A stretch of 64,000 nt of DNA from Spirochaetia bacterium (GCA_963662795.1 OY759746.1:1888001-1952000), one strand, 5' to 3'; positions 3,010 through 62,715 are shown, counted from the stretch's first letter. Notes: a model not told the origin generated them from the letters alone. Translations and numbers: made by a program.

Positions 3010-3178
3010 GGATAACAGAGGATAAAGCGCTTCACTCGGGGTACCTCGCTTGGGCTTCGCCACACATCGTAGGGTTTGAATTACAACTTCTAAAAAAAAC
3101 AAGTCTAGAGGGAAATAATACAGCTTTTTAACTTTCATAGTTATTTACGATGCGTCGCTTATCCTCAGGACGTTATGC
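3010..3178 (+). repeat. attC-like site 1 (host family, AGAGGATAA core)
   Basis: GGATAAC...CGCTTATCCTCAGGAC-GTTATGC. Confidence 0.85.
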
Positions 3179-3648
3179 GAAAGGCTGGCCGAAGAGGAAT
3201 AGGCTGGGGGCGGGGGAGAGGAAGACGCCGCCGTACATCGTGTGCGCCGAAGAAAAATTAATAAACTGTGATTTTTATAATCTGTAAGAGTGTTTGTATA
3301 AATTACCATTATAAAAGCAGAAAAAATGAAAATATAATTTTATTTTAGCAGTTCCTTCCGTTTCATTTGATTATGGCTTGGTTAATAAACAAAAAAAAAT
3401 AAATCGCATAAAATGTAATATATTTTTGTAAGTGAAAATTATTTGGGATAAAGGTGAAAATAAAACTCTTAAGCTTGAAAGATATATTTCTTTCAAGATA
3501 TTTGTGGATTTGATTCTGGGGCTAGTTATAAAGTTAATTTGCAAAATATTAACCTTGGAATATAGCTGATTATGATAATTTTCACCGTCTCACACTTCCA
3601 TGTGTTCGACGAAGACCGCCCCAGCCAAGAAGAGCCGGCCAGCCCATC

Positions 3649-3802
3649 GCATAACAGCGAATGGCCGGTTCCGGCTGTTTCTAAGGAAACAGCCTCCACC
3701 CAAATTGCCGAAGTAATACATGTTAAGAATAATGGAATAGAGTATAAACTTTTGGAGTGAAAAACACCATCGGCAACTTCGGTCATTCGCGAGACGTTAT
3801 AT
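3649..3802 (+). repeat. attC-like site 2 (AGCGAATG core)
   Basis: GCATAAC...CATTCGCGAGAC-GTTATAT. Confidence 0.85.
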
Positions 3803-3895
3803 GCAATACGACCCCAAGAGGACGCCGCCCGGACCTCCGGCCCACGGGCGAAGAAAATGGTATCTGCTGTATAATATACTTTATACATAAGATAT

Positions 3896-3925
3896 ATAGT
3901 TTTCTAGTTATTTAATATGTTATGA
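3896..3925 (+). other. Internal attI-like integration site in a carrier cassette
   Basis: ATAGTTTTCTAGTTATTTAATATG|TT, near-identical at ~29605-29630 and similar at ~62812-62832; the following GTTATGAGTC is the reverse complement of GACTCATAAC at 5626-5635. Confidence 0.65.
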
Positions 3926-3990
3926 GTCTAAGACGCGTCGATAGTTTTTTATATGAAGCAATTAAATTGATCTAAGGAGGGTCTGAAAAT

Positions 3991-5259
3991 ATGTATTTCA
4001 AAGCGGGAACTAGGAATATTGTTTTTGTGGTTGCATTTGTTCTATTGGCAGGCTGTACCACTATTGATACGAAGCCATTCGAACAGTTTAACTCCTCGTT
4101 AACAGAGTTAAATAAAGGGGCAACATCATCGCTTGATGTGACCATTCCTTTAGCGGAAGGGCGTTACCGGAAAGAAGTCGAGAGTGAATTAAAGCAAGGG
4201 AATGACGAGTTGTTACAGGAGCTTTATATACTGGCTAAAGCAGAGAATCCATTTTTCATATCTAAGCCACCAGTATTTTTAAAGGCGAAAAAATTTAAAT
4301 TAGGAATTTCGAAAGCCAACCTAGTTTGGTTGGAATACTCTAATCTTTTGTTACAACTTTCATCGAAAGATCTTGTCGATGATGAAAAGTTTTTGAAGCT
4401 ATCAGAAGAACTTAATAAAAATGCGTTCGACGCGGTTCAGTCGCTCAAAGATGAACCCAGCGATACATCTGCAAAAAATACGGCACTTTTTTCAGAGATA
4501 GCTATTGCAATGGCGAAAGAGTACATAAGAACAAAGCAGAAGAAAAAGCTTATGGAGTCTCTCGCTAACAATCAAGACAGCATTAGTGCCTATGTAGAGC
4601 ATATGCAAAGTGCGATAGTAACAATGGCGCAAAGCAGTACTCAGGAACACTCAGAAAAGCAGGAAAATTTAGCTAGAGATCTTTTAGGTTTGGTGGTTAG
4701 TAACGAAAACGGTAAGAACGATGCAAAAATACAAAAAATTATCGGGGATATGATTGATATCAAAACTACACATTCAGACCAAATGGTGTCTCTCCAGGCG
4801 TTGCATACAGCATATGGAAAAATACCTGGTGCCCATGAAGCGTTGGCAACGCGGTTGGCTAAATCAGATTCATCTATAGCTGCCATTAATGACCTGTTAG
4901 AAAAAGGAGTTCAGCTTCATACTTCTTACGAAGCGAAGGTAAAAGTTAATAAAGTAGAATTGGTGCAAGCTAAAGCAGATGCAGCGAGTAGTGAAGCTAC
5001 AACAGCTGAAATCACATATCAGCAAGCCAAGCTAAAATACACGCAAGCCCAATTTGAATATACCTTGGCACAAAATACTTCAGATGCAGATCCCGATAAC
5101 GAAATCAAAAAGAAAGATGCTGAAGATAAAAAGAAAATAGCTGAAGAGCTTAAATTAGAGGCTGATGGTCTAAAAAAATCTTCCGAAGCCCTAAGAGCGG
5201 CTGCGACGGCTATACAAGAAAGTGCTAACGAAATCAAAAACAGTATTATCAACAATTAA
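3991..5259 (+). CDS. Lipoprotein with long coiled coil (nested cassette)
   Basis: Signal peptide with LLAGC lipobox; helical Ala/Lys/Glu-rich C-terminus; AAGGAGG RBS. Confidence 0.8.
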   Translation: MYFKAGTRNIVFVVAFVLLAGCTTIDTKPFEQFNSSLTELNKGATSSLDVTIPLAEGRYRKEVESELKQGNDELLQELYILAKAENPFFISKPPVFLKAKKFKLGISKANLVWLEYSNLLLQLSSKDLVDDEKFLKLSEELNKNAFDAVQSLKDEPSDTSAKNTALFSEIAIAMAKEYIRTKQKKKLMESLANNQDSISAYVEHMQSAIVTMAQSSTQEHSEKQENLARDLLGLVVSNENGKNDAKIQKIIGDMIDIKTTHSDQMVSLQALHTAYGKIPGAHEALATRLAKSDSSIAAINDLLEKGVQLHTSYEAKVKVNKVELVQAKADAASSEATTAEITYQQAKLKYTQAQFEYTLAQNTSDADPDNEIKKKDAEDKKKIAEELKLEADGLKKSSEALRAAATAIQESANEIKNSIINN

Positions 5260-5270
5260 GGAGCTAAGAG

Positions 5271-5621
5271 ATGCCTATTTCCATGACAAAAAAACAAGAA
5301 ATAATACAGCAATTATTGGTTTTAAAAACAAAAGCGTATCAAGCGGAAGTTAAATTGTTGTTAAAACAAAAGCCTAACGAGGCCAACGATGTAAAGAATC
5401 ATGGTAAAGAGCTGTCCAGAAAGATTGATAACTTAATAGCAGAAACAATGAGTGACTGGATAGGAAATGCCGACAAACTTATTAGTGATGTAAAGTTGAT
5501 TAACAAAAAAGTACAACGTTCTATTAATGATATAAATAACAATGCAAATGTAGCTGGAAACGTTGTTAAGTTAGTCGGTTTCATTGATGAGGTAGTTGAA
5601 ATTGTTGACGGGATTACTTAA
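5271..5621 (+). CDS. Hypothetical helical protein, partner of the lipoprotein
   Basis: AAGGAG RBS, 11 bp downstream of the previous gene, same inner cassette. Confidence 0.75.
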   Translation: MPISMTKKQEIIQQLLVLKTKAYQAEVKLLLKQKPNEANDVKNHGKELSRKIDNLIAETMSDWIGNADKLISDVKLINKKVQRSINDINNNANVAGNVVKLVGFIDEVVEIVDGIT

Positions 5622-5628
5622 TTACGAC

Positions 5629-5761
5629 TCATAACATGTCGCTCGAGTAGTCCGCGCGGCATGCTATCACCAGCCGAGATTTTTGCTAGCTGCATCTTGC
5701 TTTTCATTAGAATATTAATCTTTTCAGCAGCACCACGCGGCAACTCAGCTCTGCGTTATGT
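5629..5761 (+). repeat. Canonical attC site (inner, non-host family)
   Basis: TCATAAC-ATGTCGC-TCGAGT...ACTCA-GCTCTGC-GTTATGT, classic R''/L''/L'/R' spacing. Confidence 0.85.
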
Positions 5762-5826
5762 TTATCAAAATTAGATAAATTGAGAGTGTTAGTTGAAATG
5801 GGTAAAAAGTAGTAGAAGGAAAAGTT

Positions 5827-7032
5827 ATGGGATGTAATCATGAAGAAATTGAATTATTAAATCCTTATGAGATAGTATGGAAGTATAGGTGTAAAAAATG
5901 TAAAGAAGTATTTATGTGTAGCTGTGAAGAAGATGTTGCAAGGTTTTATGTACCACATCAATTAGATAAAGGATGTAACTTAGAAACCCAAGAGCGAATT
6001 CCTGTTACATTGGGGTTTGTAGATAATATTTGCGATTCTTGTAGGGGGAATAAAAAGAAGCCTTTTCCCAAAGCGCCAATGATGGGTGCAACCAGCAAAA
6101 TACGAAGATATTATTGGAAAGAGATTTTATATATAAAAATAAGAAAAACTATTGAATTCGCTAAGAATAATAATTGTGATTCGTATGATGCTGTATTAAA
6201 AAAATATCCTGAGAAAATAGAACAATTTGAAAATGAGGCACTAAATGAAATAAAGGAATTACATGCTAAACATCCATTATATGAATATGAAGATATTTCA
6301 CAACAGGAAATAATTGAAAAATACAATATTGATATGATAGAATTTGAAGCTAATTATATAAAATCAGAAGAAAAAAAAGTAATCATTGAATATAAAAATG
6401 AAAAATATAATGTTGAGGAATTTATTAGAAGGAAGTATGAAGAAAAAGGCTTTAAAACACTTATATTAGAAAGTATTCCTTTTCATGTTTTGTTTGCTAC
6501 AATATTTAATAATATTATTCAAAATATTGATGATGAAAAAGTTAGACGTACAAGTTTTGGCGATCGAGAATATAGAGGAATAATGATAAGTGCATTACTT
6601 CCTTCTGACTTTGGGACGTCAGGGTATTACAAAAGAAAAAGAGAAATAATTGATAACTTTTTGAAGAAATTCACATCAAAAGAATTATTAATTGAAGAAT
6701 TTACTCAAAATTTAAATAATCCCATTAGTGAGAATTTAAGACAATATTTATGGGCAATAGATATTGAAAAAATAGAAATAGCCAGAAAACTTCTTGATAT
6801 CATAGATCATAATATCATGAAAAATATTTTACTTTATTTAATAAAGGATTACTGGAAGAATTATTGTGGATGGCCGGATTTGATTTGTTATACAGATGAA
6901 AAAGTATTATTTGTTGAAGTTAAATCAAGTACTGATAAACTAAGTGAAGATCAAAAAAACTGGATTGAGGGAAATTATAAAGAATTATCTATAGATTTTG
7001 AGATAGCGAAAGTTATAAGATTGAAAACATAA
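5827..7032 (+). CDS. VRR-NUC domain nuclease with N-terminal Cys-rich region (nested cassette)
   Basis: GWPDL...FVEVKSSTDKLSEDQKNW PD-(D/E)xK VRR-NUC motif; CxxC pairs. Confidence 0.8.
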   Translation: MGCNHEEIELLNPYEIVWKYRCKKCKEVFMCSCEEDVARFYVPHQLDKGCNLETQERIPVTLGFVDNICDSCRGNKKKPFPKAPMMGATSKIRRYYWKEILYIKIRKTIEFAKNNNCDSYDAVLKKYPEKIEQFENEALNEIKELHAKHPLYEYEDISQQEIIEKYNIDMIEFEANYIKSEEKKVIIEYKNEKYNVEEFIRRKYEEKGFKTLILESIPFHVLFATIFNNIIQNIDDEKVRRTSFGDREYRGIMISALLPSDFGTSGYYKRKREIIDNFLKKFTSKELLIEEFTQNLNNPISENLRQYLWAIDIEKIEIARKLLDIIDHNIMKNILLYLIKDYWKNYCGWPDLICYTDEKVLFVEVKSSTDKLSEDQKNWIEGNYKELSIDFEIAKVIRLKT

Positions 7033-7180
7033 CAAGCAAATCGAGCAGTCCTGACTATTGTCACGGTTTCTGCTAAAGCCGTTCCGGCTCCCTGCGTGAT
7101 CACCCTCCGCCTGCACTCAGGAACAGCGTCAATGCCATCGGATGGCTTTGACTGTCAGGCAGCTCATCTGGTAGTTATAC
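7027..7180 (+). repeat. Canonical attC site (inner, non-host family)
   Basis: ACATAAC-AAGCAAA-TCGAGC...GCTCA-TCTGGTA-GTTATAC; R'' matches the cassette start GTTATGT at 5755. Confidence 0.85.
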
Positions 7181-7254
7181 TGGAATATTTAGAAAAGAGG
7201 AAAAGTCCGGCCTTGGCGGTGCCGTGCGGCCTGGACAAGAAGGGGTCGTACTGC

Positions 7255-7446
7255 ATATAACAGCGATTATTTCGCTGCGCTCCCTGTGGTCGCTTGGGCT
7301 CCTGCCAGTTGAGCTGGCAGATCGCCATATTTTGTTTTCATAAAACCGGAACAACATGTGTTTTATGCTCTTCAAGTTTGTAAAAACCAAATAAAAATAT
7401 TTTAGAGTTTAGTCACAAAACATCGAATAATCGCGAGACGTTATCT
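7255..7446 (+). repeat. attC-like site 3 (AGCGATTATT core)
   Basis: ATATAAC...AATAATCGCGAGAC-GTTATCT. Confidence 0.85.
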
Positions 7447-7531
7447 GTAATACCGCCCAAGAAAATAGTGCGCCATCCTTGGCGCACAAGATATATAATA
7501 TTATTAAAGTGATAGTCAAAAGGAAAAAATT

Positions 7532-8431
7532 ATGAGGAAATTTATTTTATATTTAATTGTTTTTATTACAATAATTTCATGTAATAGTAATATAAGACCA
7601 GAGTTATATATGGAAAGTATTAACATTAATAATGATGAAAACAAATTAGTTATTACCCCGACAATTAAGTTTGAATACGATAGTGAAAAAAAGATGATTA
7701 AATGGTTAAATAAAGCCAGTGAAGAGAAATTTACTTTTCAAGTAGGGAATAAATACTTTTTTATTTTTAAAAGTATGAAATTCAATTTAAAGGATCATGA
7801 ACAATCAATTATAAAAACAAATAGGATACAATTAAGTTTTTTCATTGATGATGAAGAATTATATAAGAATATATTACCAACGATGTTAGAAAATAATAAG
7901 ATGATTGATTCAAATCAAGCTCCTCTTGAAATGGTTAATATTTCATTAGATGTTGATGGTAAGTGGATATTTTATGATTTAAACGAAAATATAGATCATG
8001 ATATGATTTATGAAAAATTATATGCTAAAATGATAAAATATTTAAAAAAAAATAAAAGTAGCGCATTGGCTATTTCAATACCAAAAATTAAAAAAGAATA
8101 TGAGAATAATCCTGCTACAGCAAATTATGTTTATAAATATCAGTTTATTAAATTTACTTCTGCAATCGAAAGTATTATATCGGAATTAAATCCAATTCTT
8201 GGAAATGGCTATATGATTGTCCTTAGTAATGGTGTTAAGTTATATGATAATTCTAGCGATATAATGTATTATAAAAATGGTGATTTAATTAATGTTTTTG
8301 GCATACTAAATGATGTTGAAAATTATACTGAAACAAAAAGCAAGTTTGTTGAGGCTAATATATTGAATACCCATAAAAACACTTTTTATCGAAATATGTA
8401 CTTTCAATTTTTTGAAAAAGGTGATATTTGA
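7532..8431 (+). CDS. Putative lipoprotein
   Basis: MRKF + hydrophobic stretch + IISC lipobox (spirochaete-style). Confidence 0.75.
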   Translation: MRKFILYLIVFITIISCNSNIRPELYMESININNDENKLVITPTIKFEYDSEKKMIKWLNKASEEKFTFQVGNKYFFIFKSMKFNLKDHEQSIIKTNRIQLSFFIDDEELYKNILPTMLENNKMIDSNQAPLEMVNISLDVDGKWIFYDLNENIDHDMIYEKLYAKMIKYLKKNKSSALAISIPKIKKEYENNPATANYVYKYQFIKFTSAIESIISELNPILGNGYMIVLSNGVKLYDNSSDIMYYKNGDLINVFGILNDVENYTETKSKFVEANILNTHKNTFYRNMYFQFFEKGDI

Positions 8432-8904
8432 TGAAAAAAAATATTCTATTGATTATTTTTATATTGATTTCGTCTAAAATATTTATTTATGCAATTGAAG
8501 GCACGTGGACTTTTACAAATTTATTTAGTCAAACAATCAAAGATGGTAAAGCAACTTTAGAACCACTGGATACTGAAATTATTAAGAGAATAGTATTTAT
8601 AGATAACAAATCAGATAATAATTTAACTATACAAAAGGCAGAAATTGAAATATTAAGTATTGAGAATGAATACAAAAAATATAATGCAAATTATATCGAT
8701 TTTAACACTCTGATACAAATATATATACAGGATATTGAAAAAATTATTTTAACTATATTTGTTTTTAAAGAAAACGATAACAAAATCTGGTATTCATATG
8801 CAATATCTCCTGATTATATATTAAAAGGAAAAATATCTGGAACACAAGAACATGATAGTATTTTTTTGAATATGATAGGGTTTATGTCAAAAACATTTTT
8901 TTGA
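8428..8904 (+). CDS. Putative secreted hypothetical protein
   Basis: MKKNILLIIF signal peptide; overlaps the upstream stop codon. Confidence 0.7.
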   Translation: MMKKNILLIIFILISSKIFIYAIEGTWTFTNLFSQTIKDGKATLEPLDTEIIKRIVFIDNKSDNNLTIQKAEIEILSIENEYKKYNANYIDFNTLIQIYIQDIEKIILTIFVFKENDNKIWYSYAISPDYILKGKISGTQEHDSIFLNMIGFMSKTFF

Positions 8905-8957
8905 CATAAATCACAATCGCCATCCATGGCGATTGTGATAGGAAAGGGCGGTACTAC

Positions 8958-9149
8958 AGATAACAGCGATTATTTCGCTGCGCTCCCTTTGGTCGCTTGG
9001 GCTCCTGCCAGTTGAGCTGGCAGATCGCCATATTTTGTTTTCATAAAACCTGAACGATATGTGTTTTATGCTTTTCAAGTCTGAAAAAACCAAATAAAAG
9101 TATTTTAGAGTTTAGTCACAAAACATCGAATAATCGCGAGACGTTATTT
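8958..9149 (+). repeat. attC-like site 4 (AGCGATTATT core)
   Basis: AGATAAC...GTTATTT. Confidence 0.85.
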
Positions 9150-9203
9150 GCAATAAACGCGCAAGAAAGGTGAAGCTCGCCGTCCTGGCTCGCAGGAAAT
9201 ATA

Positions 9204-10154
9204 ATGAAACAAAAACCATATATTTATCTTGATGAAAATATTATACAATATGTTCACGAGAAAAAAATAAAACTAGATGAAATTGAAAATGTTGAATGGA
9301 TATTTTCAGATGAACATTTAATAGAAATAGAGCGATCAAGAAATCTAGATATTTTAGATGTTTTAAAAGAGCTTAGAGCTAGAAGAATTAAAATTAAATT
9401 AAACGATAAATTTCAAATACTTAATGAAGCAATAATTGATGAATATAAAAATCCAAAAGAGATATATAAAGAATATAAGGATAATACTGCTTTTGCTGAA
9501 GAAATAAATATGGATTTTGCAGCACTTCAAGTTTTTATATTTGGAAATAAAGAAATAATTGATATTGAGCAATACGTTGACAAATATATCCTTTCAATAA
9601 AAAAGTTGATAAAACCAACATTTGAGTTTATTAATAATAAAAAATATGAATTCTCCTACGAATTAATGATAAATAAGTTAAAAAAAGATTTATTGAATAG
9701 TTTGAAAACTGCCTCAAAACAACTTAAACCTGTTGAAGAAATTAGAAAAAAAATAGTTAAGCTACCTCTATCAAATCTTGACGAAAAAAATGGGTTAATT
9801 ATTGATCAAATATGGGAAAAAATAATTGAAAATAATAATTTAATATTCACTAAAGATCAATTTTTCGGGAAGGAAAAGATGCCTTTTTATAATGGATGTG
9901 ATATATGGTCAACATTTTTAGGAATATCACAGTGTCATTCTGCTTTAAACTATTTGGGATATTGGCCTGATAAAGGATTGAAAAAAATAAGTAAAATACA
10001 TGGTATCAATAGTGATTCATCACATATTGGACATGCTGCATTTTGTGCAGGGATAATAAGTGCTGATGATAGATTATGTAAAAAAGCAAAAGCAATTTAT
10101 CAATATTTTAATTTACCAGTTGTAGTCATAAAAGTAGATATACTTAAGAAATAA
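9204..10154 (+). CDS. Hypothetical protein, possible PIN-like fold
   Basis: N-terminal YLDENII and C-terminal DSSHI...ISADDRL acidic motifs. Confidence 0.6.
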   Translation: MKQKPYIYLDENIIQYVHEKKIKLDEIENVEWIFSDEHLIEIERSRNLDILDVLKELRARRIKIKLNDKFQILNEAIIDEYKNPKEIYKEYKDNTAFAEEINMDFAALQVFIFGNKEIIDIEQYVDKYILSIKKLIKPTFEFINNKKYEFSYELMINKLKKDLLNSLKTASKQLKPVEEIRKKIVKLPLSNLDEKNGLIIDQIWEKIIENNNLIFTKDQFFGKEKMPFYNGCDIWSTFLGISQCHSALNYLGYWPDKGLKKISKIHGINSDSSHIGHAAFCAGIISADDRLCKKAKAIYQYFNLPVVVIKVDILKK

Positions 10155-10202
10155 TAATCAAGCTCAACTTCCATGTTTCGCTTGAGGAAGCGCGTTTACT
10201 GC

Positions 10203-10373
10203 AAATAACAGAGGATAATTCGCTTCGCTCGGAGTACCTCGCTTGGCCTGCGGCATATTTTGCTATCATTAAAGCAGTTCATATTCTGTTTTACGCTGTT
10301 TAAATATATTTCCCAATATTATTACGTTGAAAAAGGATTTAGCAAAACATCGCTTATCCTCAAGACGTTAGAT
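10203..10373 (+). repeat. attC-like site 5 (AGAGGATAA core)
   Basis: AAATAAC...GTTAGAT. Confidence 0.85.
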
Positions 10374-10426
10374 GCAATGTTCGGCTTGTAAAGCCTCGCC
10401 GTCCTGGCGAGGCAAGAGGAGGAAAT

Positions 10427-46489: not shown

Positions 46490-46491
46490 TT

Positions 46492-53426: not shown

Positions 53427-53557
53427 GGAAATTGTCCAATTACTGCTTCAATAGAGTCAACACTTTGCTTTTTATAGGTTAAGAAAGTATTAAAAAGAAA
53501 AGGAAGTCCAGACCTTGGCTCCGCCCTAACGGCCTGGACAAGACGCGAAGGTACTGC

Positions 53558-53730: not shown

Positions 53731-53805
53731 GCAATACCTTCGCGAAGAGAAAATCGCCCGGGCCCCTGGCCGACGAGCGAGGAATACAGTGTAAAGGATT
53801 AGAGA

Positions 53806-54309
53806 ATGTTTGAAATCAGGAAGCTTAATAAAGAAAAAGATCTTAATGATTTACTGTATGTAATTCAGGAATCATTTCTAACTGTCGCTGAAGATTTTAA
53901 TCTGACAAAAGAAAATGCTCCAACAAATCCGGCATTTATAACAATGGATAAATTAAAGGAATCAATTGAAAATAAACTTGATTTTTATGTTGCAACTGAA
54001 AGTAATAAAATAATAGGCTGTATAGGAGTGCAGCCAGGAAAAAAAGAAAAAGAATATTATATTGAGAGATTAGCAGTACTTCCTGAATATAGACACTCTG
54101 GTTATGGTAAAAAACTGCTGGATAAAGCATTTGATGAGATAAGAGAAAGAAAAGCAAGATATGTAAGTATAGGTATAATAAATGAAAATAAAGTTTTAAA
54201 AAGATGGTATCTTCAAAATGGATTCATAGATTACGAAACGAAAAAATATGATCATCTACCTTTTACAGTGTGTTTGATGGGTATGGATTTAGAAAAAAAA
54301 GAAATATAA
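53806..54309 (+). CDS. GNAT acetyltransferase
   Basis: ERLAVLPEYRHSGYGKKL, WY..NGF. Confidence 0.88.
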   Translation: MFEIRKLNKEKDLNDLLYVIQESFLTVAEDFNLTKENAPTNPAFITMDKLKESIENKLDFYVATESNKIIGCIGVQPGKKEKEYYIERLAVLPEYRHSGYGKKLLDKAFDEIRERKARYVSIGIINENKVLKRWYLQNGFIDYETKKYDHLPFTVCLMGMDLEKKEI

Positions 54310-54699
54310 ATGAAAATTGCAGAAAAACTAAAAGAAAAATCTAAAAAAATAAAAACCCAGCTTTTAACAGTTTATTATGCATATAAGAATCCAGAAATAA
54401 AGCTTCTGCCGAAAATTATTATTGGGATTGCGATAGCTTATGCATTAAGTCCAATAGATATAATTCCAGATTTTATTCCTGTAATAGGGTATTTAGATGA
54501 TTTAATAATAATTCCTGCATTACTTAGTATAGCAATAAAAATGATTCCAAAAGAAATAATGGAAGAATCAAGGGAAAGAGCAGAGAATGAATCAATAAAA
54601 CTAAAACATAATTGGGCGTTTGCAGTAATATTTATTTTAATATGGATTTATTTGATAGTAATAATTACTAAAATATTGTTAAAATTTATAAATCGTTAA
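54310..54699 (+). CDS. YkvA/DUF1232 membrane protein
   Basis: YALSPIDIIPDFIPVIGYLDD. Confidence 0.88.
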   Translation: MKIAEKLKEKSKKIKTQLLTVYYAYKNPEIKLLPKIIIGIAIAYALSPIDIIPDFIPVIGYLDDLIIIPALLSIAIKMIPKEIMEESRERAENESIKLKHNWAFAVIFILIWIYLIVIITKILLKFINR

Positions 54700-54767
54700 T
54701 AGGAAAGGATAAGAAGTCCAGACCTTGCCTCCGGCCTATCGGTCAGGACAAGACGCGAAGGTACTGC

Positions 54768-54959
54768 AAATAACAGCGATTATTTCGCTGCGCTCCCTGT
54801 GGTCGCTTGGGCTCCTGCCAGTTGAGCTGGCAGATCGCCATATTTTGTTTTCATAAAACCGGAACAACATGTGTTTTATACTCTTCAAGTTTGTAAAAAC
54901 TAAATAAAAGTATTTTAGAGTTTAGCCACAAAACATCGAATAATCGCGAGACGTTCTCC
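54768..54959 (+). repeat. attC-like site 31 (AGCGATTATT core)
   Basis: AAATAAC...GTTCTCC. Confidence 0.85.
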
Positions 54960-55129
54960 GAAATACCGCCCCAAGAGGACACCGCCCGGACCTCCGGCCA
55001 ACGGGCGAAGATAGAGCGAGTTAATAATTATTAAAATAGAAAATATATCAAAAAAAGAATAATAAAAAGCACGCTAAAAAGCTTGATAAATAATGCTAAG
55101 AATAGTATTAATTAACATAGGGTAGGAAT

Positions 55130-55387
55130 ATGAAGAATATTATAACTGCAAATGATCTAAAAGTAAGAGGAATCTCAATAATAGATGAAGTAAGCACTTC
55201 GAACCAGGAAGTTGTAATTACTGTTCATGGAAAAGATAAGTATGTAGTTTTGCCAATAGAGGAATACAATCAATTAAGAGAATATGAGCTTGATGCGGCA
55301 ATAAAAGAATCTCTGGAAGATATTAAAAACGGGAGAATTATTGAAGAGTCAATTGAAAAACATCTTAAGAGAATAAAAAGTGTATAA
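55130..55387 (+). CDS. Phd/YefM-family antitoxin
   Basis: ITANDLK, VVITVHGKDKYVVL..EEY. Confidence 0.82.
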   Translation: MKNIITANDLKVRGISIIDEVSTSNQEVVITVHGKDKYVVLPIEEYNQLREYELDAAIKESLEDIKNGRIIEESIEKHLKRIKSV

Positions 55388-55652
55388 AATTATCTATACA
55401 GAAAGCTATATAAAAAGGGCAAAAAAATTTGCTCAGAAGCATCCTGAGTTATTAAACCAGTATAAAAAAACACTTCAATTACTTGAGTTAAATCCTTCTC
55501 ACCCGTCATTAAGGCTCCATAAACTTGAAGGGAGAATTTCTGATTATTATAGTGTATCAATTAATATGACTTATAGAATAACAATAGATTTTTTGATAAA
55601 GGAAAAAGAAATAATCCCAATAACCGTGGGAAAGCACGAAGAAGTCTATTGA
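55380..55652 (+). CDS. RelE/YafQ-like toxin
   Basis: HPSLRLHKLEG, SVSINMTYRI, VGKHEEVY. Confidence 0.85.
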   Translation: MYKIIYTESYIKRAKKFAQKHPELLNQYKKTLQLLELNPSHPSLRLHKLEGRISDYYSVSINMTYRITIDFLIKEKEIIPITVGKHEEVY

Positions 55653-55689
55653 TAAAATGCTTTTTCAATATTTTTGAATATAAGGTAAA

Positions 55690-56250
55690 ATGAAAATACA
55701 TATTTTAGGCTCATCAGGATCTGGAACAACAACTCTCGGGAAACTAATAGCAGTAAAATATGGATTTCCGTGGTATGACTCAGATAATTTCTTTTGGGAG
55801 AAAACAGATCCGCCATTTACCAAAAAACGAATAAGAGAAGAGCGTATACAATTATTAAAAAAAGAACTTAATACGACTGATGCCTGGGTATTGAGTGGTT
55901 CAGTTATTGGCTGGGGAGATTTTATAAAAAATAAATTGGATTTAGCTATCTATTTATATGCTGAGTCAGCGGTGAGAATCAAGCGGTTGATAGAGCGGGA
56001 AAGAAGTATTTATGGAAATAGAATTGACCCCGGAAATGATATGTTTGAAATACATATTTCCTTTTTAGAATGGGCAAAAAATTACGAGACTGGCAATATG
56101 AATATGAGAAGCAGAATAAGTGAAAATGACTGGATGAAAGATTTGAGTTGTAAAATTATCAGAATAGAAGATGTAATGCCATTAAAAAGAGTAATTGAAA
56201 TTGTATCAAAAGAAATTGATTTATCATTATTAAAAAATACTGGTTTGTAA
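55690..56250 (+). CDS. P-loop kinase (adenylate kinase-like)
   Basis: ILGSSGSGTTTL, DSDNFFW, WVLSGS. Confidence 0.8.
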   Translation: MKIHILGSSGSGTTTLGKLIAVKYGFPWYDSDNFFWEKTDPPFTKKRIREERIQLLKKELNTTDAWVLSGSVIGWGDFIKNKLDLAIYLYAESAVRIKRLIERERSIYGNRIDPGNDMFEIHISFLEWAKNYETGNMNMRSRISENDWMKDLSCKIIRIEDVMPLKRVIEIVSKEIDLSLLKNTGL

Positions 56251-56347
56251 TAATTTATCTTAGGAATAATTTAACGGAAGATAAATATTACATAAAGAAT
56301 CCAAGCCTTGGCGTTGCCGTGCGGCTTGGAAGAAGGGGCGGTACTTC

Positions 56348-56520
56348 CGAGAACAGCGGGTAAGAAGCTGCGCTCGGAGTACCTCGCTTGGGCTTCGCCA
56401 TATTTTGCTATCATGAAACCAAAACAATTATCATTATATCTTTTCAAGTGTGATAAGAGCTGTCAAAGTATTTGAAAAAGTTTTAGCCGCAAAACATCTT
56501 TTACCCGCGAAACGTTCTCC
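56348..56520 (+). repeat. attC-like site 32 (AGCGGGTAA core)
   Basis: CGAGAAC...GTTCTCC. Confidence 0.85.
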
Positions 56521-56639
56521 GAAATACCGCCCCAAGATGCGATCGCCCGGACCTCCGGCCCACGGGCGAGGATAAGTTAAGAAAATAATACAACAAATGA
56601 GTGTGAAAATTGTTAAATGATTATTAAATAGTTGACAAC

Positions 56640-56668
56640 TTGACAATTAAAATAATTACAAATATAAT
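56640..56668 (+). promoter_or_regulatory. Consensus sigma70 promoter of the TA operon (probably leaderless)
   Basis: TTGACA-17bp-TATAAT with the ATG 6 nt downstream; tandem TTGACAA repeat may be an operator. Confidence 0.75.
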
Positions 56669-56674
56669 TAATAT

Positions 56675-56914
56675 ATGAAAACAATGCAAATAGGAGATTT
56701 TAAAGCTCAATTCTCAAAGGTTCTCGAAGAAGTAAAACACGGAGAGGAAATAATAATATCTTATGGTAAACAGAAGAAAAATGTTGCAGTAATAATTCCA
56801 TATGAAGAATACAAAGAAAAAAATAGAATTAAATTGGGCTTGTTGAAAGATAAGGCAAGTTATAAATTTAATAATGATTATGAAATGACTGAAGAGGAGC
56901 TTGTAAGTCTTTGA
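56675..56914 (+). CDS. Phd/YefM-family antitoxin
   Basis: FKAQFSKVLEEVKHGEEIII..G....VAVIIP. Confidence 0.85.
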   Translation: MKTMQIGDFKAQFSKVLEEVKHGEEIIISYGKQKKNVAVIIPYEEYKEKNRIKLGLLKDKASYKFNNDYEMTEEELVSL

Positions 56915-57309
56915 AATATCTCCTTGATACACATTATTTAATCTGGAGCATAATTGACCCGGATAAAATAGATAAAAAGAGGAAAAAGATATTATTGGAT
57001 GTGAATACAGAGAAATATATAAGTCAGATAAGCTTTTGGGAAATATCAATCAAATATTCACTTGGTAAGTTAGAATTAAATGGAATTACGCCTGAAGAGT
57101 TACTTGAAGCAGCAATTGAATCAGGATTTCAAATATTGGAATTGGAAACAAAAGTACTTGCAACATCGTATAAACTACCGAAGAAAGACAAGCACAAAGA
57201 TCCTTTTGACCGATTAATGATTTGGGAATGTATCTGCAATGATTATATTTTATTAACAGCAGATGAAAAAGTAAAAGAATATAAAGAAAACGGTTTGAAA
57301 ATAGTATAG
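56911..57309 (+). CDS. vapC: VapC PIN-domain toxin
   Basis: YLLDTH, SFWEISIK, HKDPFDRL, LLTAD. Confidence 0.9.
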   Translation: MKYLLDTHYLIWSIIDPDKIDKKRKKILLDVNTEKYISQISFWEISIKYSLGKLELNGITPEELLEAAIESGFQILELETKVLATSYKLPKKDKHKDPFDRLMIWECICNDYILLTADEKVKEYKENGLKIV

Positions 57310-57399
57310 ATAAAATACAATCTACAAATAAATAAATGAAAATAAGAAAGCCCCAAGCCTTGGCGGTGCCGTGCGGCTTGGGAGAAGGGGCGGTACTTC

Positions 57400-57570
57400 C
57401 GAGAACAGAGGATAATGCGCTTCGCTCCCTTTGGTCGCTTGGGCTTCGCCACACATCGTAGGTTTTGAACTACAACTTCTATAAACAACAAGTTTTGGAA
57501 GAAATATATTGCAACTTTGAAATATTCATTCTTGGACTACGATGCGTCGCTTATCCTCGGGACGTTATCC
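57400..57570 (+). repeat. attC-like site 33 (AGAGGATAA core)
   Basis: CGAGAAC...GTTATCC. Confidence 0.85.
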
Positions 57571-57734
57571 ACAATGCCCCCACAAGATGCGATCGCCCGG
57601 ACCTCCGGCCGACGGGCGAGGAAATATGCATAATCAAATATTAGAGATAAATCATTTTTAACTGTACTCAATAGGAATAAATATTTAAAATAATTATTAA
57701 AATACTTAAATATTATAGAAAGAGAGATTGATTA

Positions 57735-58484
57735 ATGACTTTTAAACAGAAAGATTTTTTAAAAACCTATGAAATATCTAGTAAAGTAATTGAATTAATA
57801 AATTCAAGTGAAAGTAATATTTATATTATTACTCCTTATTTGAAACCGTGGATTCAACTTGAAAGAACTCTTGAAATAGCTGCTAATAAGAAAAAAAAAG
57901 TAACCTTTATTTTAAGATCTGGTGAAGAAAAAAAAGACTTTGTTAAAAAATTGTATCAAAATTATGGTTTTGAAGTTTATATATATGAATATTTACATTT
58001 AAAATTATATACTGCAGATAATAAAGCAATTTTCTCATCTATGAATCTTTATGATAGTTCAAATGAAAAAAATATAGAAATGGGGTTAATAATTAATTTT
58101 TCACCAAAAGATTATATAACTTTTAAAAAAGAATATATTTATGAAAACATTTTTATGAGCAATCCACAATTTTACTTTAAAGGAAATTTTGAAAATGAGT
58201 ATTTTAAATATCAAAACAATGAAAAACAAGCGTTAAATGAATTTGGTAAAATTGGATATTGTATAGTTTGTGGTAAGAAAATTGATCATCTCAAAAATTC
58301 AAATAAATATGAACCTTACTATACCAGATGTGAAGAGTGTTATTTCAAAAATCCAAATCTAAATAATTATTATGATAAAAAAGTAAATTATTGTTATATT
58401 TGTGGAGAAAAAGGTAATTATATAATTGGGAAGCCATTTCATGAAAACTGTATTAAAACATTGAAAAGTTTAAGACCTTATTAA
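57735..58484 (+). CDS. Phospholipase D-like (HKD) nuclease with C-terminal zinc-finger
   Basis: ITPY, LHLKLY...SSMNL...NIEMG; C-terminal CxxC pairs. Confidence 0.78.
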   Translation: MTFKQKDFLKTYEISSKVIELINSSESNIYIITPYLKPWIQLERTLEIAANKKKKVTFILRSGEEKKDFVKKLYQNYGFEVYIYEYLHLKLYTADNKAIFSSMNLYDSSNEKNIEMGLIINFSPKDYITFKKEYIYENIFMSNPQFYFKGNFENEYFKYQNNEKQALNEFGKIGYCIVCGKKIDHLKNSNKYEPYYTRCEECYFKNPNLNNYYDKKVNYCYICGEKGNYIIGKPFHENCIKTLKSLRPY

Positions 58485-58594
58485 ATCTATTCATAATAAA
58501 TATAGGTGTACAGGTAGAGTAATTACCTGACAACGCAAGTAGTCCGGCCTTGGCTTCCAGCCGTACGGCCTGGACAAGAAGTGGGGGCACTGGT

Positions 58595-58767
58595 GGATAA
58601 CAGCGGTTAAAGCGCTACGCTCGGAGTACCTCGCTTGGCCTACGGCAAACATCGTAGGATTTTATCTACAGCTATTGGGAACATCAAGTTTTAAAAGAAA
58701 GAAATATTTAGATTTTTATTTATTATTCTTGGTCTACGATGCTTCGCTTAACCGCGGGACGTTATCC
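58595..58767 (+). repeat. attC-like site 34 (AGCGGTT core)
   Basis: GGATAAC...GTTATCC. Confidence 0.85.
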
Positions 58768-58855
58768 ACAATGCCCCCACGAGATACAATCGCCCGGACC
58801 TCCGGCCGACGGGCGAAGAGAATTGAATACCAATTGCACTACTAAACAAAGGTAA

Positions 58856-59761
58856 ATATATGAATGGATTAAATGGAAAAATATTTTATTCAAACACTTA
58901 GAGGACAATTCTTTTCCTGCTGTAAAAGAATTATATCATTATACAACAATTGAAAATTTCTGCAAAATTATTGAAAGTAAATCATTTTATGTTTTTAATT
59001 CTTATCATATGAATGATTATAAAGAAAACTATGTATTGATCGAAAAACTTAAGGAATATTTAAAAAATAGAAATGATATTCCAGAGGATTATCTGAATAA
59101 ACTTGATGAAACCATAAGGATAAAGTTTAGATTAAATACACCATATGTGTTTTGCTTAACTGAGTTAAATGATTCTTTATCACAATGGAGAGCTTATGGA
59201 AATGATGGTGAAGGAATTTGTTTTAAAATAGACAGTAAAAAGTTGGAAATGAAATATCGTTTGCCTTTTTCAGGCGTAGAAAAAGATAATAATTTATCAT
59301 TACACAATGTAATTTATAGTAATGAAGAGATTATAAATATCATTGAGGATATTCTCAATGAAAGTATTGAATTTTCAAAAACACGAGATGAAAATATTAA
59401 AAATATAGTCTTTGCTGAAAACGCATGTGCTTTAATGGTTAGATTTAGCCCAGTAGTAAAATTAAATGAATTTAGAGAAGAGAAAGAATGGAGAATTATT
59501 TACAATCCAGTTTGTATAAAAACCGACAGTATTCCATTTAATACTTTAGATAATAATAAAGACATTGGATTTGTTACAACAAATAACAATTTGAGATCTT
59601 ATTTTAAAATATCATTTACAAGTGATGAGTTTAAAGATATTATTTCTGCTATTTATATTGGTCCTAAAAGTAGAGTACACTATTATGAAATGCGAATATT
59701 ATTAGATATTAATGCATTAAAAAATACAGAAATATATCATTCAAAAATACCATATAGATAA
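58856..59761 (+). CDS. DUF2971-like protein (start uncertain)
   Basis: Frame is open from ATA at 58856 and includes LYHYTT...MNDYKE upstream of the called ATG at 59009; DSLSQWRAYG, FREEKEWR, IYIGP. Confidence 0.7.
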   Translation: MYEWIKWKNILFKHLEDNSFPAVKELYHYTTIENFCKIIESKSFYVFNSYHMNDYKENYVLIEKLKEYLKNRNDIPEDYLNKLDETIRIKFRLNTPYVFCLTELNDSLSQWRAYGNDGEGICFKIDSKKLEMKYRLPFSGVEKDNNLSLHNVIYSNEEIINIIEDILNESIEFSKTRDENIKNIVFAENACALMVRFSPVVKLNEFREEKEWRIIYNPVCIKTDSIPFNTLDNNKDIGFVTTNNNLRSYFKISFTSDEFKDIISAIYIGPKSRVHYYEMRILLDINALKNTEIYHSKIPYR

Positions 59762-59852
59762 TTATTTGTATAGGTAGAATAATTACCTGCCAGTTAAAAA
59801 AGTCCGGCCTTGGCTCCGCCGTGCGGCCTGGACAAGAAGTGGGGGCACTGGT

Positions 59853-60005
59853 GGATAACAGCGGTTAAAGCGCTTCGCTCGGATTACCTCGCTTGACCTT
59901 CGGTATAAAGGCGCAAAAAAAAATTGATAAGTTCTATGAAAGTAATTAAAACTTGTTGGTTTAAAATAAAAAACGCCTTCATCGCTTAACCGCGGGACGT
60001 TATAA
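59853..60005 (+). repeat. attC-like site 35 (AGCGGTT core)
   Basis: GGATAAC...GTTATAA. Confidence 0.85.
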
Positions 60006-60105
60006 GCAATGTTCCCGCAAGAGAAAACCGCCCGGACCTCCGGCCGACGGGCGAGGATATGCAGTATAATAATATAGACCCTACAGATGTGGAGAGATAT
60101 AGTAA

Positions 60106-60663
60106 TTGGTAAGAGTATTTATTGATAATAATGTTTGGGATATTTTTTATCAGTATTCTTTAGATTTAAATAGTGAGTTACCAATAAATGAATTTGATAT
60201 TATAATAACAAAAGAAGCGGAATTTGAAATTAAAGGAATGCCTGATAAGAAAAAGAAATATGCTGAATATCAAATAAAAAATCGTAATATAAGAACTGAT
60301 AAATTATTTGGATTTTTTAATGAGAATTATTTACTAAGTGAGCAACGAGTTGGTGGATATAGTACTTATGATAACAAGGTTGTTGGAGGAAGATTTATAA
60401 AAGATGATGAGTTTAAAATTATAAAAGAAGAAAGAAACGCATTAGGAAGTAAAAAGAAAAAAACGGGGCTTTATAATAATGAAGCAGATATAGCAATAGC
60501 TGCAAGATCATTAAATTCTATAGTATTGACTTGTGATAATAGAAAAGTACTTAAAAGAGCAAAAAATCGAAAAGGTTCAATGGTAATAGATTTAAGTGGA
60601 TTTAATAATACAATAACAATAAGGCAAATAATTTCTGAATTTATGAAAAAATATTTTAACTAA
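60106..60663 (+). CDS. PIN-like domain protein
   Basis: VFIDNNV, E..I, ADIAIAA, VLTCD. Confidence 0.62.
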   Translation: MVRVFIDNNVWDIFYQYSLDLNSELPINEFDIIITKEAEFEIKGMPDKKKKYAEYQIKNRNIRTDKLFGFFNENYLLSEQRVGGYSTYDNKVVGGRFIKDDEFKIIKEERNALGSKKKKTGLYNNEADIAIAARSLNSIVLTCDNRKVLKRAKNRKGSMVIDLSGFNNTITIRQIISEFMKKYFN

Positions 60664-60779
60664 AAACTATATCAACCTGACATTCTCTTTGACATGATTT
60701 GTGCTGTTGCTACACTCGTGACATACAAATCCTGCAAAGCCTTGCAGGCTAGGAAATGCAGGTTATCTAAATGTTAAAA
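60660..60779 (+). repeat. Degenerate inner attC (second family)
   Basis: CTAAAAACTATATCAACCTGA...CAGGTTATCTAAAT-GTTAAAA; resembles 13201-13319 and 30360-30478. Confidence 0.6.
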
Positions 60780-60874
60780 TTGTAAATTACAAATAATTAA
60801 ATAATTGTTTGAAAATGAAAGGAAGTCCGGCCTTGGCTCCGCCGTACGGCCTGGACAAGAAGCGGGAACACTGC

Positions 60875-61048
60875 TTATAACAGCGGTTCAAGCGCTTCGC
60901 TCGGAGTACCTCGCTTGGCCTACGGCAAACATCGTAGGATTTAAACAATAACTTTTTGAAACAACAAGTTTTTAAAAGACAATGAATAAAAGTATTGTGT
61001 TTACAATTCTTGATCTACGATGCTTCGCTTAACCGCGGGACGTTATAA
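60875..61048 (+). repeat. attC-like site 36 (AGCGGTT core)
   Basis: TTATAAC...GTTATAA. Confidence 0.85.
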
Positions 61049-61198
61049 GCAATGTTCCCGCAAGAGGAAATCGCCCGGACCTCCGGCCGACGGGCGAGAG
61101 ATTTAATACAATAAATGATTTTCTCTATTGCCAAAATATGATATAAATAAAAGTTCTGAAAGCTTAAATATTGTGCCATTAAATGCTAAAGGATTTCA

Positions 61199-61828
61199 AT
61201 GAATTATCAGCCTAATAATATTCAGTTTAATTATAATGGAACGGAAGAATTATTATTATCAGATTATAATGAGAATACAAAATATTCGGGCATAGATTTT
61301 GCCGAACAAAATAATTCAAATATTGCTTTTGAAAATTGTAATTTTAAATCTTGTAGATTTGATAGTTTAATGTTAGAAAATATAAAATATTCATCATGCC
61401 TATTTGAAAAATGTGAAATTATTTTAACTAAATTCAAAAATAATACCCTAAACGGTGTTAAATTTCTGGATTGTAAAATAATAGGGATTAATTTTACGGA
61501 ATGTAATGATTTTGGATTATCGCTTGATTTTGAAGGATCAATTCTTGACAGTGTTGTAATATTTGGAAAAGCATTAAAAAAAACAAATATTATTAAATGC
61601 AAAATAAAGAATTCATATTTTACTGACACTGATTTTAGAGAATCAAATTTCTCTGAAACTTACTTTGAAAAAGTAATCTTTCATAACTGCAATTTAGAAA
61701 AAAGTGATTTTAGAACAGCTTCAGGTTATGAAATTGATCCAAAAGATAACAAAATAAAAAATAGTAAATATAGACTTCCGGAAGCTCAATCGTTCTTAGG
61801 ATTTTTAGGGATAAAAATAGACTTCTAG
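61199..61828 (+). CDS. Pentapeptide-repeat protein
   Basis: Five-residue periodicity (FENCN FKSCR, TDFRE SNFSE, CNLEK SDFRT). Confidence 0.85.
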   Translation: MNYQPNNIQFNYNGTEELLLSDYNENTKYSGIDFAEQNNSNIAFENCNFKSCRFDSLMLENIKYSSCLFEKCEIILTKFKNNTLNGVKFLDCKIIGINFTECNDFGLSLDFEGSILDSVVIFGKALKKTNIIKCKIKNSYFTDTDFRESNFSETYFEKVIFHNCNLEKSDFRTASGYEIDPKDNKIKNSKYRLPEAQSFLGFLGIKIDF

Positions 61829-61851
61829 TTGTGGATAAAAAAGGAGGTTGA

Positions 61852-62445
61852 ATGTTAATATGCAATTCATTTTGTCCTGATGTGGATCAAGTAAAACATT
61901 TTCAAAAAAATAAGGTAAATAATGAAAATATCAAAATGATCATAATATCAGAATCAGTACCCAAAAATATAACGGATTATTTTGACGGGAAAGGAGTTCC
62001 TGCATTTATTAAGAATACAAATACTTTATTTAATCAAATCGGATATGATTATAAAACATATGATGACTATTTAAGTAATGGTATTTATTTAACAACGGCA
62101 ATAAAATGTATAAAAAAAGGATATTTAGTATCAATAAAAACAATAGAAGAATGTTCATATATTCTGGAAAAGGAAATAATGTCTTTTATTAATGTAAAAG
62201 TAATAATGCTGATGGGTGATTTTGCTATTAAATCTATAAATTACATATGGAAAAGAAAATATAAGCAAAAAGTATTACCAAACGGTGCGACTTATAAAAT
62301 TAGAAATGAAAAATATATATATAATGGAGTAAGGTTTATACCTTCATATACACAAACAGGAGATAGTTTTGGTATTGAAAAAAGTAAAGTATTAATGATG
62401 AAAGAAGATCTAGAACAAGGAATGAAAATAATTAAAGAAAAATGA
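61852..62445 (+). CDS. Uracil-DNA glycosylase superfamily protein
   Basis: IISES.P, YLTTAIKC, LEKEI, MLMGD.A. Confidence 0.75.
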   Translation: MLICNSFCPDVDQVKHFQKNKVNNENIKMIIISESVPKNITDYFDGKGVPAFIKNTNTLFNQIGYDYKTYDDYLSNGIYLTTAIKCIKKGYLVSIKTIEECSYILEKEIMSFINVKVIMLMGDFAIKSINYIWKRKYKQKVLPNGATYKIRNEKYIYNGVRFIPSYTQTGDSFGIEKSKVLMMKEDLEQGMKIIKEK

Positions 62446-62542
62446 ACAGGAAATATATATAGGTATAGTGTAATTACCTAACAGTTTAAGAAGTCCAGCC
62501 TTGGCTCCGCCGAGCGGCTTGGACAAGAAGCGGGAACACTGC

Positions 62543-62715
62543 TTATAACAGCGGTTCAAACGCTACGCTCGGAGTACCTCGCTTGGCCTTCGGCATATTT
62601 TATTATCATTCAATCAAAAAAATCTGTGTTTTCTTCTTTTCAAGTGTATTAAACAAACAAAAAAGATTTATAGAGTTTGAGCCATAAAACATCGCTTAAC
62701 CGCGGAACGTTATAT
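62543..62715 (+). repeat. attC-like site 37 (AGCGGTT core)
   Basis: TTATAAC...GTTATAT. Confidence 0.85.

Follow-up and report, generated by a model that had tools for sequence, protein, structure and literature searches.

Extended end pairing in a spirochaetal cassette array next to an I2-less integrase

Results

A large cassette array headed by a tyrosine recombinase

The stretch of DNA analysed here (the window; 64,000 nt, i.e. G000:C1:1,888,001-1,952,000) comes from Spirochaetia bacterium GCA_963662795.1, whose genome is a single contig of 3.93 Mb with 39.7% G+C. The window (1..64000, + strand) lies wholly within one larger array of integron-like gene cassettes, which extends from ~1,848,872 to 2,180,000 on G000:C1 and comprises ~186 cassettes in ~330 kb, i.e. 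8.4% of the genome, all of them on one strand. At its head is an open reading frame (ORF) coding for a 339-aa tyrosine recombinase that is co-oriented with the array and ends 152 nt before the first cassette. The cassettes are bounded by attC-like hairpins, which were located with a sequence rule (AAC, 1 base, 7-nt arm, complement of the arm, 4-6 nt, GTT). This rule gives 187 sites within the array span, 37 of which are in the window (from 3014/3172 to 62547/62709):

3014..62711, + strand: 37 attC-like AAC…GTT hairpin sites, bounding 36 complete cassettes

A GC-rich 25-nt hairpin motif taken from cassette starts in the window occurs in 166 copies genome-wide, all on the + strand and all between 1,850,162 and 2,180,018. 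When a stricter hairpin rule was applied to the whole genome, 54 of 65 plus-strand matches fell in the array, and the matches outside it (11 on the plus and 12 on the minus strand) were scattered singles. As these off-array matches are isolated and found on both strands, the scan revealed no second array in the genome. A general hairpin finder recovered 34 window sites and no canonical arrays.

The two ends of each cassette pair with one another

Each cassette spans GTT to AAC, and two blocks at its start pair as reverse complements with the bases at its own end. These paired ends, here called barcodes, and the elements next to them can be followed in one example cassette:

12457..13412, + strand: example cassette, GTT to AAC; its ends pair 9/9 and 9/9
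12457..12476, + strand: start barcode, i.e. R' box GTTATCCAC, loop AA and outer box TGCCCCCAC; pairs with 13392-13412
12477..12480, + strand: start flank, sequence AAGA
12487..12511, + strand: GC-rich hairpin of the start module, 6-7 bp stem and 13-nt loop
13353..13386, + strand: GC-rich hairpin of the end module
13387..13391, + strand: end flank AAGAA, oriented like the start flank
13392..13412, + strand: end barcode, i.e. outer box GTGGGGGCA, loop CTG and R'' box GTGGATAAC
13413..13550, + strand: hairpin body, i.e. an unpaired A, the bulged L'' arm, a variable loop, the L' arm and the 5 unpaired nt GGGAC before GTT

For scoring, the R box, i.e. nt 1-9 of the cassette, and the 9-nt block that comes next, the outer box, were compared with the reverse complement of the cassette's own end. 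In the window 34/36 cassettes agree at 8/9 positions or more in both blocks, 26/36 being perfect (18/18), and their starts fall into 17 sequence variants. Over the whole array 163/186 cassettes pass the same two-block test, 134 of them perfectly, with 36 start types. The original prediction, made from the sequence of the window alone, had stated that the first ~20 nt of each cassette are the reverse complement of its own last ~20 nt, in 35 of 36 cassettes and with about 16 variants; this holds, the values being close to the 34-35/36 cassettes and 17 types found here. The start motif given there occurs 41 times, compared to 7.5 expected occurrences. The stem is, however, not a plain ~20-mer as had been assumed, but is made up of two 9-bp parts, the R box and the outer box, with a small loop between them.

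The pairing is specific for the individual cassette: of 15 variable positions, 14.0 match between the two ends of a cassette, compared to 8.1 on average and 8.6 at most with shuffled partners (2000 shuffles). Each stem column from R4 to O9 contains 2-4 types of Watson-Crick pairs (46 unique start/end combinations) and this covariation needs at least about 37 paired changes. Both the compensatory changes and the cassette-specific extension of the complementarity well beyond a 7-bp core, which the original prediction had put forward, are thus confirmed. Among the 163 passing cassettes the loop reads AA on the start side without exception, while the end side reads CTG in 69, CT in 61, CA in 25 and otherwise in 8 cassettes, the first base always being C. 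In consequence, the coding strand has an A·C mismatch, equivalent to a G·T wobble on the other strand, in 163/163 cassettes.

Two cassettes of the window deviate from this scheme:

29504..31245, + strand: unlike-ended cassette, 5/9 and 5/9, the only such cassette in the window
45038..47101, + strand: register-shifted cassette, 9/9 and 6/9

The unlike-ended cassette holds two ORFs and may be a fusion; no relic site was recognised between the two ORFs. In the other cassette the register is shifted because the C/G-run of the end barcode is one base shorter than in like-typed cassettes. The long ORFs of this cassette (439 and 151 aa; window 45170-46947) are on the minus strand, its barcodes having the usual orientation.

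Neighbouring cassettes carry unlike barcodes at 140/185 in-array junctions. Like-barcoded neighbours (45/185) are nevertheless enriched over the 15.3 expected (maximum of 36 in 2000 permutations), and runs of 6-8 identical barcodes occur in the array. The original prediction's suggestion that the paired ends form a code for end pairing is not demonstrated. The six cassettes that follow the first, integrase-adjacent one all have the commonest barcode, type A.

The barcodes are flanked by AAGA (or a form shifted by one base) after the start stem in ~150/163 cassettes, and by AAGAA in 102, AAGAC in 15 and AGAAG in 15 cassettes before the end stem. GC-rich hairpins lie beyond the flanks at both cassette ends, the start hairpin being followed by AGGA-like purine runs, so that the flanks in direct orientation with hairpins beyond them are found as had been described. 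Altogether, each cassette has a conserved head module of ~70 nt and a conserved tail module of ~60 nt, and variants of the start module go along with barcode types. Pairing of the start hairpin with the end hairpin was rejected by eye, as the similar segments are parallel and not antiparallel. A second helix beyond the barcodes was likewise rejected as a general feature: a complementary run of at least 9 nt is found in only 13/163 cassettes (non-own partners: 2/163). A few barcode types have an extra complementary helix of 11-20 nt past the AAGA flanks (window 3172-3655, L089:1453-2376), and several alternative start and end hairpins have a GTCCT loop in common.

Hairpin bodies and cassette boundaries

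The 187 sites have the layout of an imperfect hairpin not only by the sequence rule but also when folded. The bodies of the hairpins are ~140, 160 or 180 nt long, with a 70-nt form elsewhere in the array. Their spacer is asymmetric, i.e. 1 nt is unpaired on one side and 5 nt on the other, and the L'' arm contains a bulged base. Near-identical cassettes at different places (18 pairs in 12 families) allow the boundaries of the mobile unit to be traced, as the identity ends at …GAC|GTT on the left and at AAC|AG… on the right; at these boundaries no direct repeat or target-site duplication flanks the duplicated cassettes. Moreover, the first cassette of the array, 152 nt past the integrase stop codon, begins with GTT and pairs with its own end. 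Since the identity of the duplicates stops at these boundaries and the first cassette already starts with GTT, we take the boundaries to be crossover points.

The 5-nt spacer varies with the body type (0/2000 shuffles reach the observed association). The body type, in turn, is weakly associated with the upstream barcode (9/2000), but not with the downstream barcode (461/2000). These associations argue for the polarity of classical integrons, where the body belongs to the preceding cassette and exchange occurs at G|TT.

Folding and strand asymmetry

The sites were folded as DNA, both in the form they would have in an excised circle and in the form present in the array. For the bottom strand, the median is -42.4 kcal/mol in the circle form and -29.2 kcal/mol in those in-array sites whose neighbours are unlike, and at 106/106 such junctions the circle form is the more stable one (median difference -15.2 kcal/mol). 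This agrees with the original prediction, according to which the stem forms only in a circle, in a looped strand or at a junction between like-barcoded neighbours. The last case is illustrated by one in-array site:

40520..40760, - strand: like-barcode in-array junction, bottom-strand fold, -48.2 kcal/mol, z = -5.4

Here, the fold consists of a 21-bp outer stem, 4 unpaired nt and then the L stem.

Of 144 circle-form sites, 137 fold more stably on the bottom than on the top strand (median -4.0 kcal/mol). Together, the A·C/G·T pair at position 11 and the 1-nt/5-nt spacer mark the bottom strand as the one that would be folded and cut. If the canonical mechanism is taken as a guide, the spacer would give a 6-nt swap region on the bottom strand only.

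The integrase

The array integrase is intact and matches PF00589 with 138 bits. The catalytic residues R197, K222, H287, R290, H313 and Y322 are invariant in 12 homologues, and its closest relatives are from Spirochaetia metagenome bins. Among the NCBIfam models the archaeal XerA fits best (214.5 bits; cut-off 220). The IntI model TIGR02249 gives 200.1 bits, i.e. less than its cut-off of 265, and aligns in two pieces that skip model positions 173-229; NF011946 gives 129 bits (cut-off 435). Accordingly, the I2 insertion is missing, with residues 235-258 (24 aa) replacing residues 173-238 of VchIntIA (66 aa), i.e. 42 fewer. The alignment to the structure of Pyrococcus abyssi XerA is continuous from end to end.

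At the N-terminus, residues 3-55 are predicted to form a beta-beta-alpha-beta-beta-alpha unit. The HARP model PF07443 matches the array integrase with 12 bits (E = 0.14, cut-off 25) and matches 10/11 homologous N-termini at E <= 10, the best having E = 5.8e-7, whereas 0/7 N-termini of Bacteroidota homologues show a match. A whole-protein Foldseek search returned recombinase cores only (VchIntIA, then XerA) and is silent on the N-terminal domain.

A separate pair of housekeeping XerC/D proteins is encoded at 3.077 and 3.082 Mb (313 and 278 bits to XerD). In a phylogenetic tree (quick search, support from the SH-like approximate likelihood ratio test (SH-aLRT) only, rooted on nine Xer proteins, with eleven canonical IntI and no archaeal sequence) canonical IntI is joined by the I2-less enzymes and by their relatives from Bacteroidota in one group that stands apart from XerC/D (SH-aLRT 100). 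That the array enzyme is a housekeeping Xer can thus be rejected, as the genome has its own Xer pair elsewhere and a branch with a support of 100 separates the two. Within the IntI group the tree gives no supported order of canonical IntI and I2-less groups, and therefore does not decide between gain and loss of I2.

Further recombinase genes and site-like elements were seen in the same genome. A canonical-type intI is located at G000:C1:412371-413302; it matches the full IntI model (176 + 196 bits), is frameshifted and contains stops in its second half. Genes for transposases of the insertion sequence (IS) type lie just upstream of it, and there is no hairpin array nearby. Directly past the integrase stop, at L089:1316-1368 (~1,847,815-1,847,867), an AAC, an 8-bp stem with an AT-rich loop and a GTT form a hairpin that could be a terminator or a site-like element of the attI region. 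Two more tyrosine recombinase genes are found within the array on the minus strand (1881755-1882309 and 2050776-2051576) and are apparently cassette cargo.

The same design in other genomes

Of 401 genomes sampled from the phylum, 118 encode homologues of the integrase (E <= 1e-50), many of which are located at the end of a contig. Canonical IntI was found in 41/401 genomes, mostly from other families. In family f19 an I2-less homologue is encoded in 40/75 genomes and canonical IntI in 0/75, and four I2-less loci of this family carry arrays with paired ends. In L129, L130 and L137 (G071:C2, G121:C2 and G369:C2; family f19), integrase and array are on a second contig of ~370-490 kb.

As the L stems differ in other lineages, the strict hairpin rule finds almost nothing there, and paired ends in the other loci were detected with exact seeds instead. 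Paired-end cassettes were found downstream of a 54%-identical integrase in a Spirochaetia bin and in eight more loci of the phylum (3-11 pairs per 20 kb, compared to at most 1.4 in shuffles). Paired ends also occur in Bacteroidota, two Flavobacterium loci among them, with bodies of the form AAC, A, stem … stem, GGAAC, GTT. Ends of this design thus follow homologous integrases in other Spirochaetota as well as in Bacteroidota. The barcode sequences of the other genomes are unrelated and yet still pair. The strand asymmetry recurs too: in 107 pairs from 13 loci, the A/G differences between the ends are co-oriented with the integrase in 94 cases and opposed to it in 8, and 77/102 of them are located exactly at position 11. 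Integrase and cassettes are co-oriented in these 13 related loci as they are in the array.

As a control, a canonical IntI array (locus L152) was located by its direct repeats. In this one array (n = 14), the two ends of a cassette pair along 6-9 nt (median 8), and beyond this the following 9 nt match at 4/9 positions, i.e. at chance level.

Strand asymmetry, the unusual integrase, the loose linkage of the hairpin bodies and the occurrence of the same design in many genomes all go beyond what had been predicted from the window.

Discussion

An enlarged attC site as proposed explanation for the paired ends

With moderate confidence we interpret the barcodes as the outer section of an enlarged attC site, belonging to a system of the integron type whose integrase is I2-less. 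On a single strand the site would be one long imperfect hairpin, comprising, from base to tip, the outer box, the loop with the fixed mismatch, the R box with AAC/GTT, the 1-vs-5-nt spacer, the bulged L stem and a variable loop, so that the barcodes would make up the outer two-thirds of the R-side stem. The crossover would take place at ACG|TT, i.e. at the inner end of the R box, and, as a consequence of this position, the 20-nt 3' arm would ride at the head of the next cassette. Being split by the crossover, the full stem would form only in the excised circle or between like-barcoded neighbours. The excised form may be the substrate for insertion at attI, and selection at this step might keep the ends complementary while their sequence drifts. 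The bottom strand would fold and be cut, presumably by the integrase at the head of the array, with the folded single strand probably being the active form. We prefer a folded single strand to a repeat recognized as duplex because pairing is kept without the sequence and because a strand-specific position is fixed across phyla. If in-array sites are weak and excised sites strong, this would favour the keeping of cassettes, which might fit the size of the array. HARP domains bind forks, and we speculate that the HARP-like domain of the integrase may read the fork at the base of the stem or the AAGA flanks.

Several points weigh against this explanation. Among the 12 duplicated families, 5 keep the same downstream body, 6 have different ones and 1 is mixed, and this loose linkage implies that a single bottom-strand exchange at G|TT is insufficient; candidate explanations are a second exchange at AAC|A between two folded sites, which would swap the heads of the hairpins, occasional top-strand events or gene conversion. 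An enlarged attC site does not account for the AAGA flanks and the two GC-rich hairpins and does not need the threefold excess of like-barcoded neighbours. Public runs, all of them contigs that break at repeats, yielded no circle junction, no empty site and neither starts nor ends of molecules. The array could formerly have used the enzyme encoded by the canonical-type intI at 412 kb, which is frameshifted. Finally, as I2 is held to be necessary for single-strand recombination, an I2-less enzyme might use double-stranded DNA.

More tentatively, and in our opinion rather doubtfully, the array could represent a second, widespread class of integrons in which a longer hairpin, read by an I2-less integrase, replaces I2 and the landmarks provided by extrahelical bases, the in-array sites being crippled by a crossover 20 bp inside the stem, with full sites on excised cassettes only, and the system thus biased towards capture and retention, which could account for arrays of up to 8% of a genome. 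In such a class the base of the stem, the fixed G·T/A·C position and the flanking fork would be read, in Spirochaetota by means of an additional HARP-like domain that binds forks. The I2-less family would then be either the missing intermediate on the way to single-strand recombination by IntI or an independent solution.

Alternative explanations

The excess of like-barcoded neighbours (45/185 vs 15.3 expected, maximum 36) and the runs of 6-8 identical barcodes would be expected if the ends were a code for the choice of partners, i.e. if the R box was the overlap exchanged between strands and the barcodes sorted cassettes into compatibility groups; moreover, the ~8 bp from G|TT to the mismatch are within the usual range of overlap regions of tyrosine recombinases. 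As 140/185 junctions are unlike, as the runs could equally be batches of sequential capture at attI or local duplications, and as the cleavage geometry suggested by the spacer, taking the canonical mechanism as a guide, puts the overlap on the other side of AAC, we consider such a code unlikely. The ends are formally 20-bp inverted repeats and the integrase lacks I2, which is linked to single-strand recombination, so that they might also be bound as duplex in a transposon-like manner without any folding. A protein that reads sequence is, however, no explanation for 36 terminal sequences of which only the complementarity is kept, nor for the fact that the sole fixed difference between the ends results in a strand-specific A·C or G·T pair across phyla, and cassette flanks contain no target-site duplication, all of which renders this possibility very unlikely. 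For similar reasons a transposon or miniature inverted-repeat transposable element bounded by terminal inverted repeats was rejected (36 terminal sequences; flanks …GAC|GTT and AAC|AG… without a direct repeat).

Pairing might alternatively take place in RNA, where a panhandle of transcript ends could direct processing to single-cassette mRNAs whose ends are protected by the GC-rich hairpins. An array of 330 kb needs some route of expression, and both the stable hairpins just inside the two barcodes and the AGGA-like purine runs after the start hairpin would suit such a function. Yet, the fixed pair of the sense strand is A·C and not G·U, the other non-Watson-Crick pairs are 5 A·C vs 2 G·T (unique combinations), and the stem ends exactly at the recombination boundaries, making a role in RNA very unlikely as well. 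Also very unlikely is the idea that paired ends are a by-product of the making of cassettes, kept by descent without a present function: start-module variants travel with barcode types, indicating that barcode families share descent, but the at least about 37 paired compensatory changes, the pairing across phyla with unrelated sequences and the fixed position of the mismatch speak for continuing selection. The enlarged attC site remains the reading that we favour.

Relation to known systems

In classical integrons, cleavage occurs on the bottom strand at AA|C, extrahelical bases have a role, and own-end pairing is said, going back to Stokes and Hall, to cover the 7-bp core of the cassettes. 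The array resembles them in many respects. A recombinase and an attI-like junction head a one-strand array, the sites are imperfect AAC…GTT hairpins that contain a bulged base and whose spacer is unpaired, the crossover is placed at G|TT, the start of a cassette pairs with its own R'', and there is a bias for the bottom strand. Unlike in classical integrons, own-end pairing extends over ~20 nt with a loop instead of 7 nt, 20 nt instead of 6 nt 3' of the crossover ride on the next cassette, cassettes have conserved head (~70 nt) and tail (~60 nt) modules, and the hairpin body is only loosely tied to the cassette. The enzyme, too, is different, i.e. it is without I2, scores below the IntI cut-off, has a HARP-like N-terminus and is co-oriented with the cassettes, whereas the integrase of a classical integron is expected to be divergent from the array. 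Integrases co-oriented with the cassettes have been reported for Treponema integrons. The canonical L152 array is chromosomal as well and from the same phylum, but its integrase passes the IntI cut-off (up to 508 bits). Judged from its sequence, the array seems to work like an integron, and its enzyme has neither of two traits that define the family in present-day detection, the I2 insertion and a score above the cut-off of the IntI model.

The likeness to archaeal XerA, i.e. the best NCBIfam model and the end-to-end alignment, contrasts with the grouping of the enzyme with IntI and not with bacterial Xer in a tree that was built without archaeal sequences. Like the cassettes described here, IS200/IS605 elements and the REP/RAYT system have subterminal hairpins of the same orientation at either end, accompanied by a short direct motif; their enzymes are of the HUH type, whereas the array has a tyrosine recombinase, inverted-repeat ends and a tandem arrangement.

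In the literature, the array enzyme fits the description of the 'Integron-like' simple tyrosine recombinases as given in the available part of Smyshlyaev et al. 2021 (PMC8138268), a part that does not link the insertion-less members to cassette arrays or a site structure. The DUF1874 motif arrays (Weinberg et al. 2017, PMC5737381), which we could compare by their description only, have a multi-stem motif in consecutive intergenic regions that was suggested to be an unusual attC of greater complexity than a hairpin; in the available text an integrase at the head of the array is not seen. A search of Rfam gave no family at gathering score and one weak, unrelated match (E = 0.71), the inclusion of the DUF1874 motif in that copy being unconfirmed. 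In the excerpts at hand, I2 is held to be necessary for single-strand recombination and a 'lack of intermediates' is noted (PMC7790495), the detection of integrons relies on the extra IntI domain to separate IntI from other integrases and few integrons are reported in Bacteroidetes (PMC9024848), and Treponema is called the only clade of spirochaetes with integrons (PMC3607928). The original prediction had called the architecture unfamiliar from known integrons, and indeed no description of extended own-end pairing, of arrays with I2-less integrases or of a HARP–recombinase fusion was found in searchable full text, i.e. outside subscription journals and supplements.

In the view of the field, integron integrases gained single-strand recombination by the acquisition of the I2 helix (PMC7790495). 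The array described here is large, intact and based on hairpins, and the enzyme at its head is a relative of IntI without I2. If such arrays are active, a large pool of mobile cassettes is at present filed as nothing or as integrase-less arrays. The recognition of folded single-stranded DNA without I2 would be testable with one cloned enzyme and synthetic sites, and the split stem would provide a simple physical reason for very large chromosomal arrays.

Cassette cargo and further observations

Likely defence genes, among them restriction and OLD-family genes, abound in the cassettes of the window. Chromosomal integrons have been reported to store defence genes and the cargo of the window is in line with this. 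The products of large cassettes include an OLD-family ATPase-nuclease, a type IIG-like restriction-modification enzyme, an Mrr-like nuclease, a ResIII helicase and a VRR-NUC protein, among others. The likely defence genes are found in the following regions of the window, their domains being AAA_21/PHP, AAA_15+TOPRIM (OLD-family), an Eco57I/MmeI-like methylase-nuclease, HATPase_c_3, Mrr_cat and ResIII helicase:

36-2771, 10427-12220, 21246-24218, 24667-26133, 27439-29241, 34300-35880 and 40834-42750: likely defence genes

The first cassette of the array presumably encodes an antitoxin together with a PIN-type toxin.

Public runs, which consist of contigs only and break at the repeated modules, were compared over window 12400-32000 (X1, X4 and X9). 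Some single cassettes also turn up in runs labelled as a second organism (X4), for example the cassette region 29602-31237 with 1 difference in 1636 nt, neighbouring cassettes having a depth of about zero. The cassette content therefore differs between the two organisms. At 5625-5765, within the cassette 3796-7261, the window contains a CATAAC…GTTATG inverted repeat of ~140 nt with GC-rich arms, which is outside the body types of the array and could be a foreign attC that marks a fused or captured cassette.

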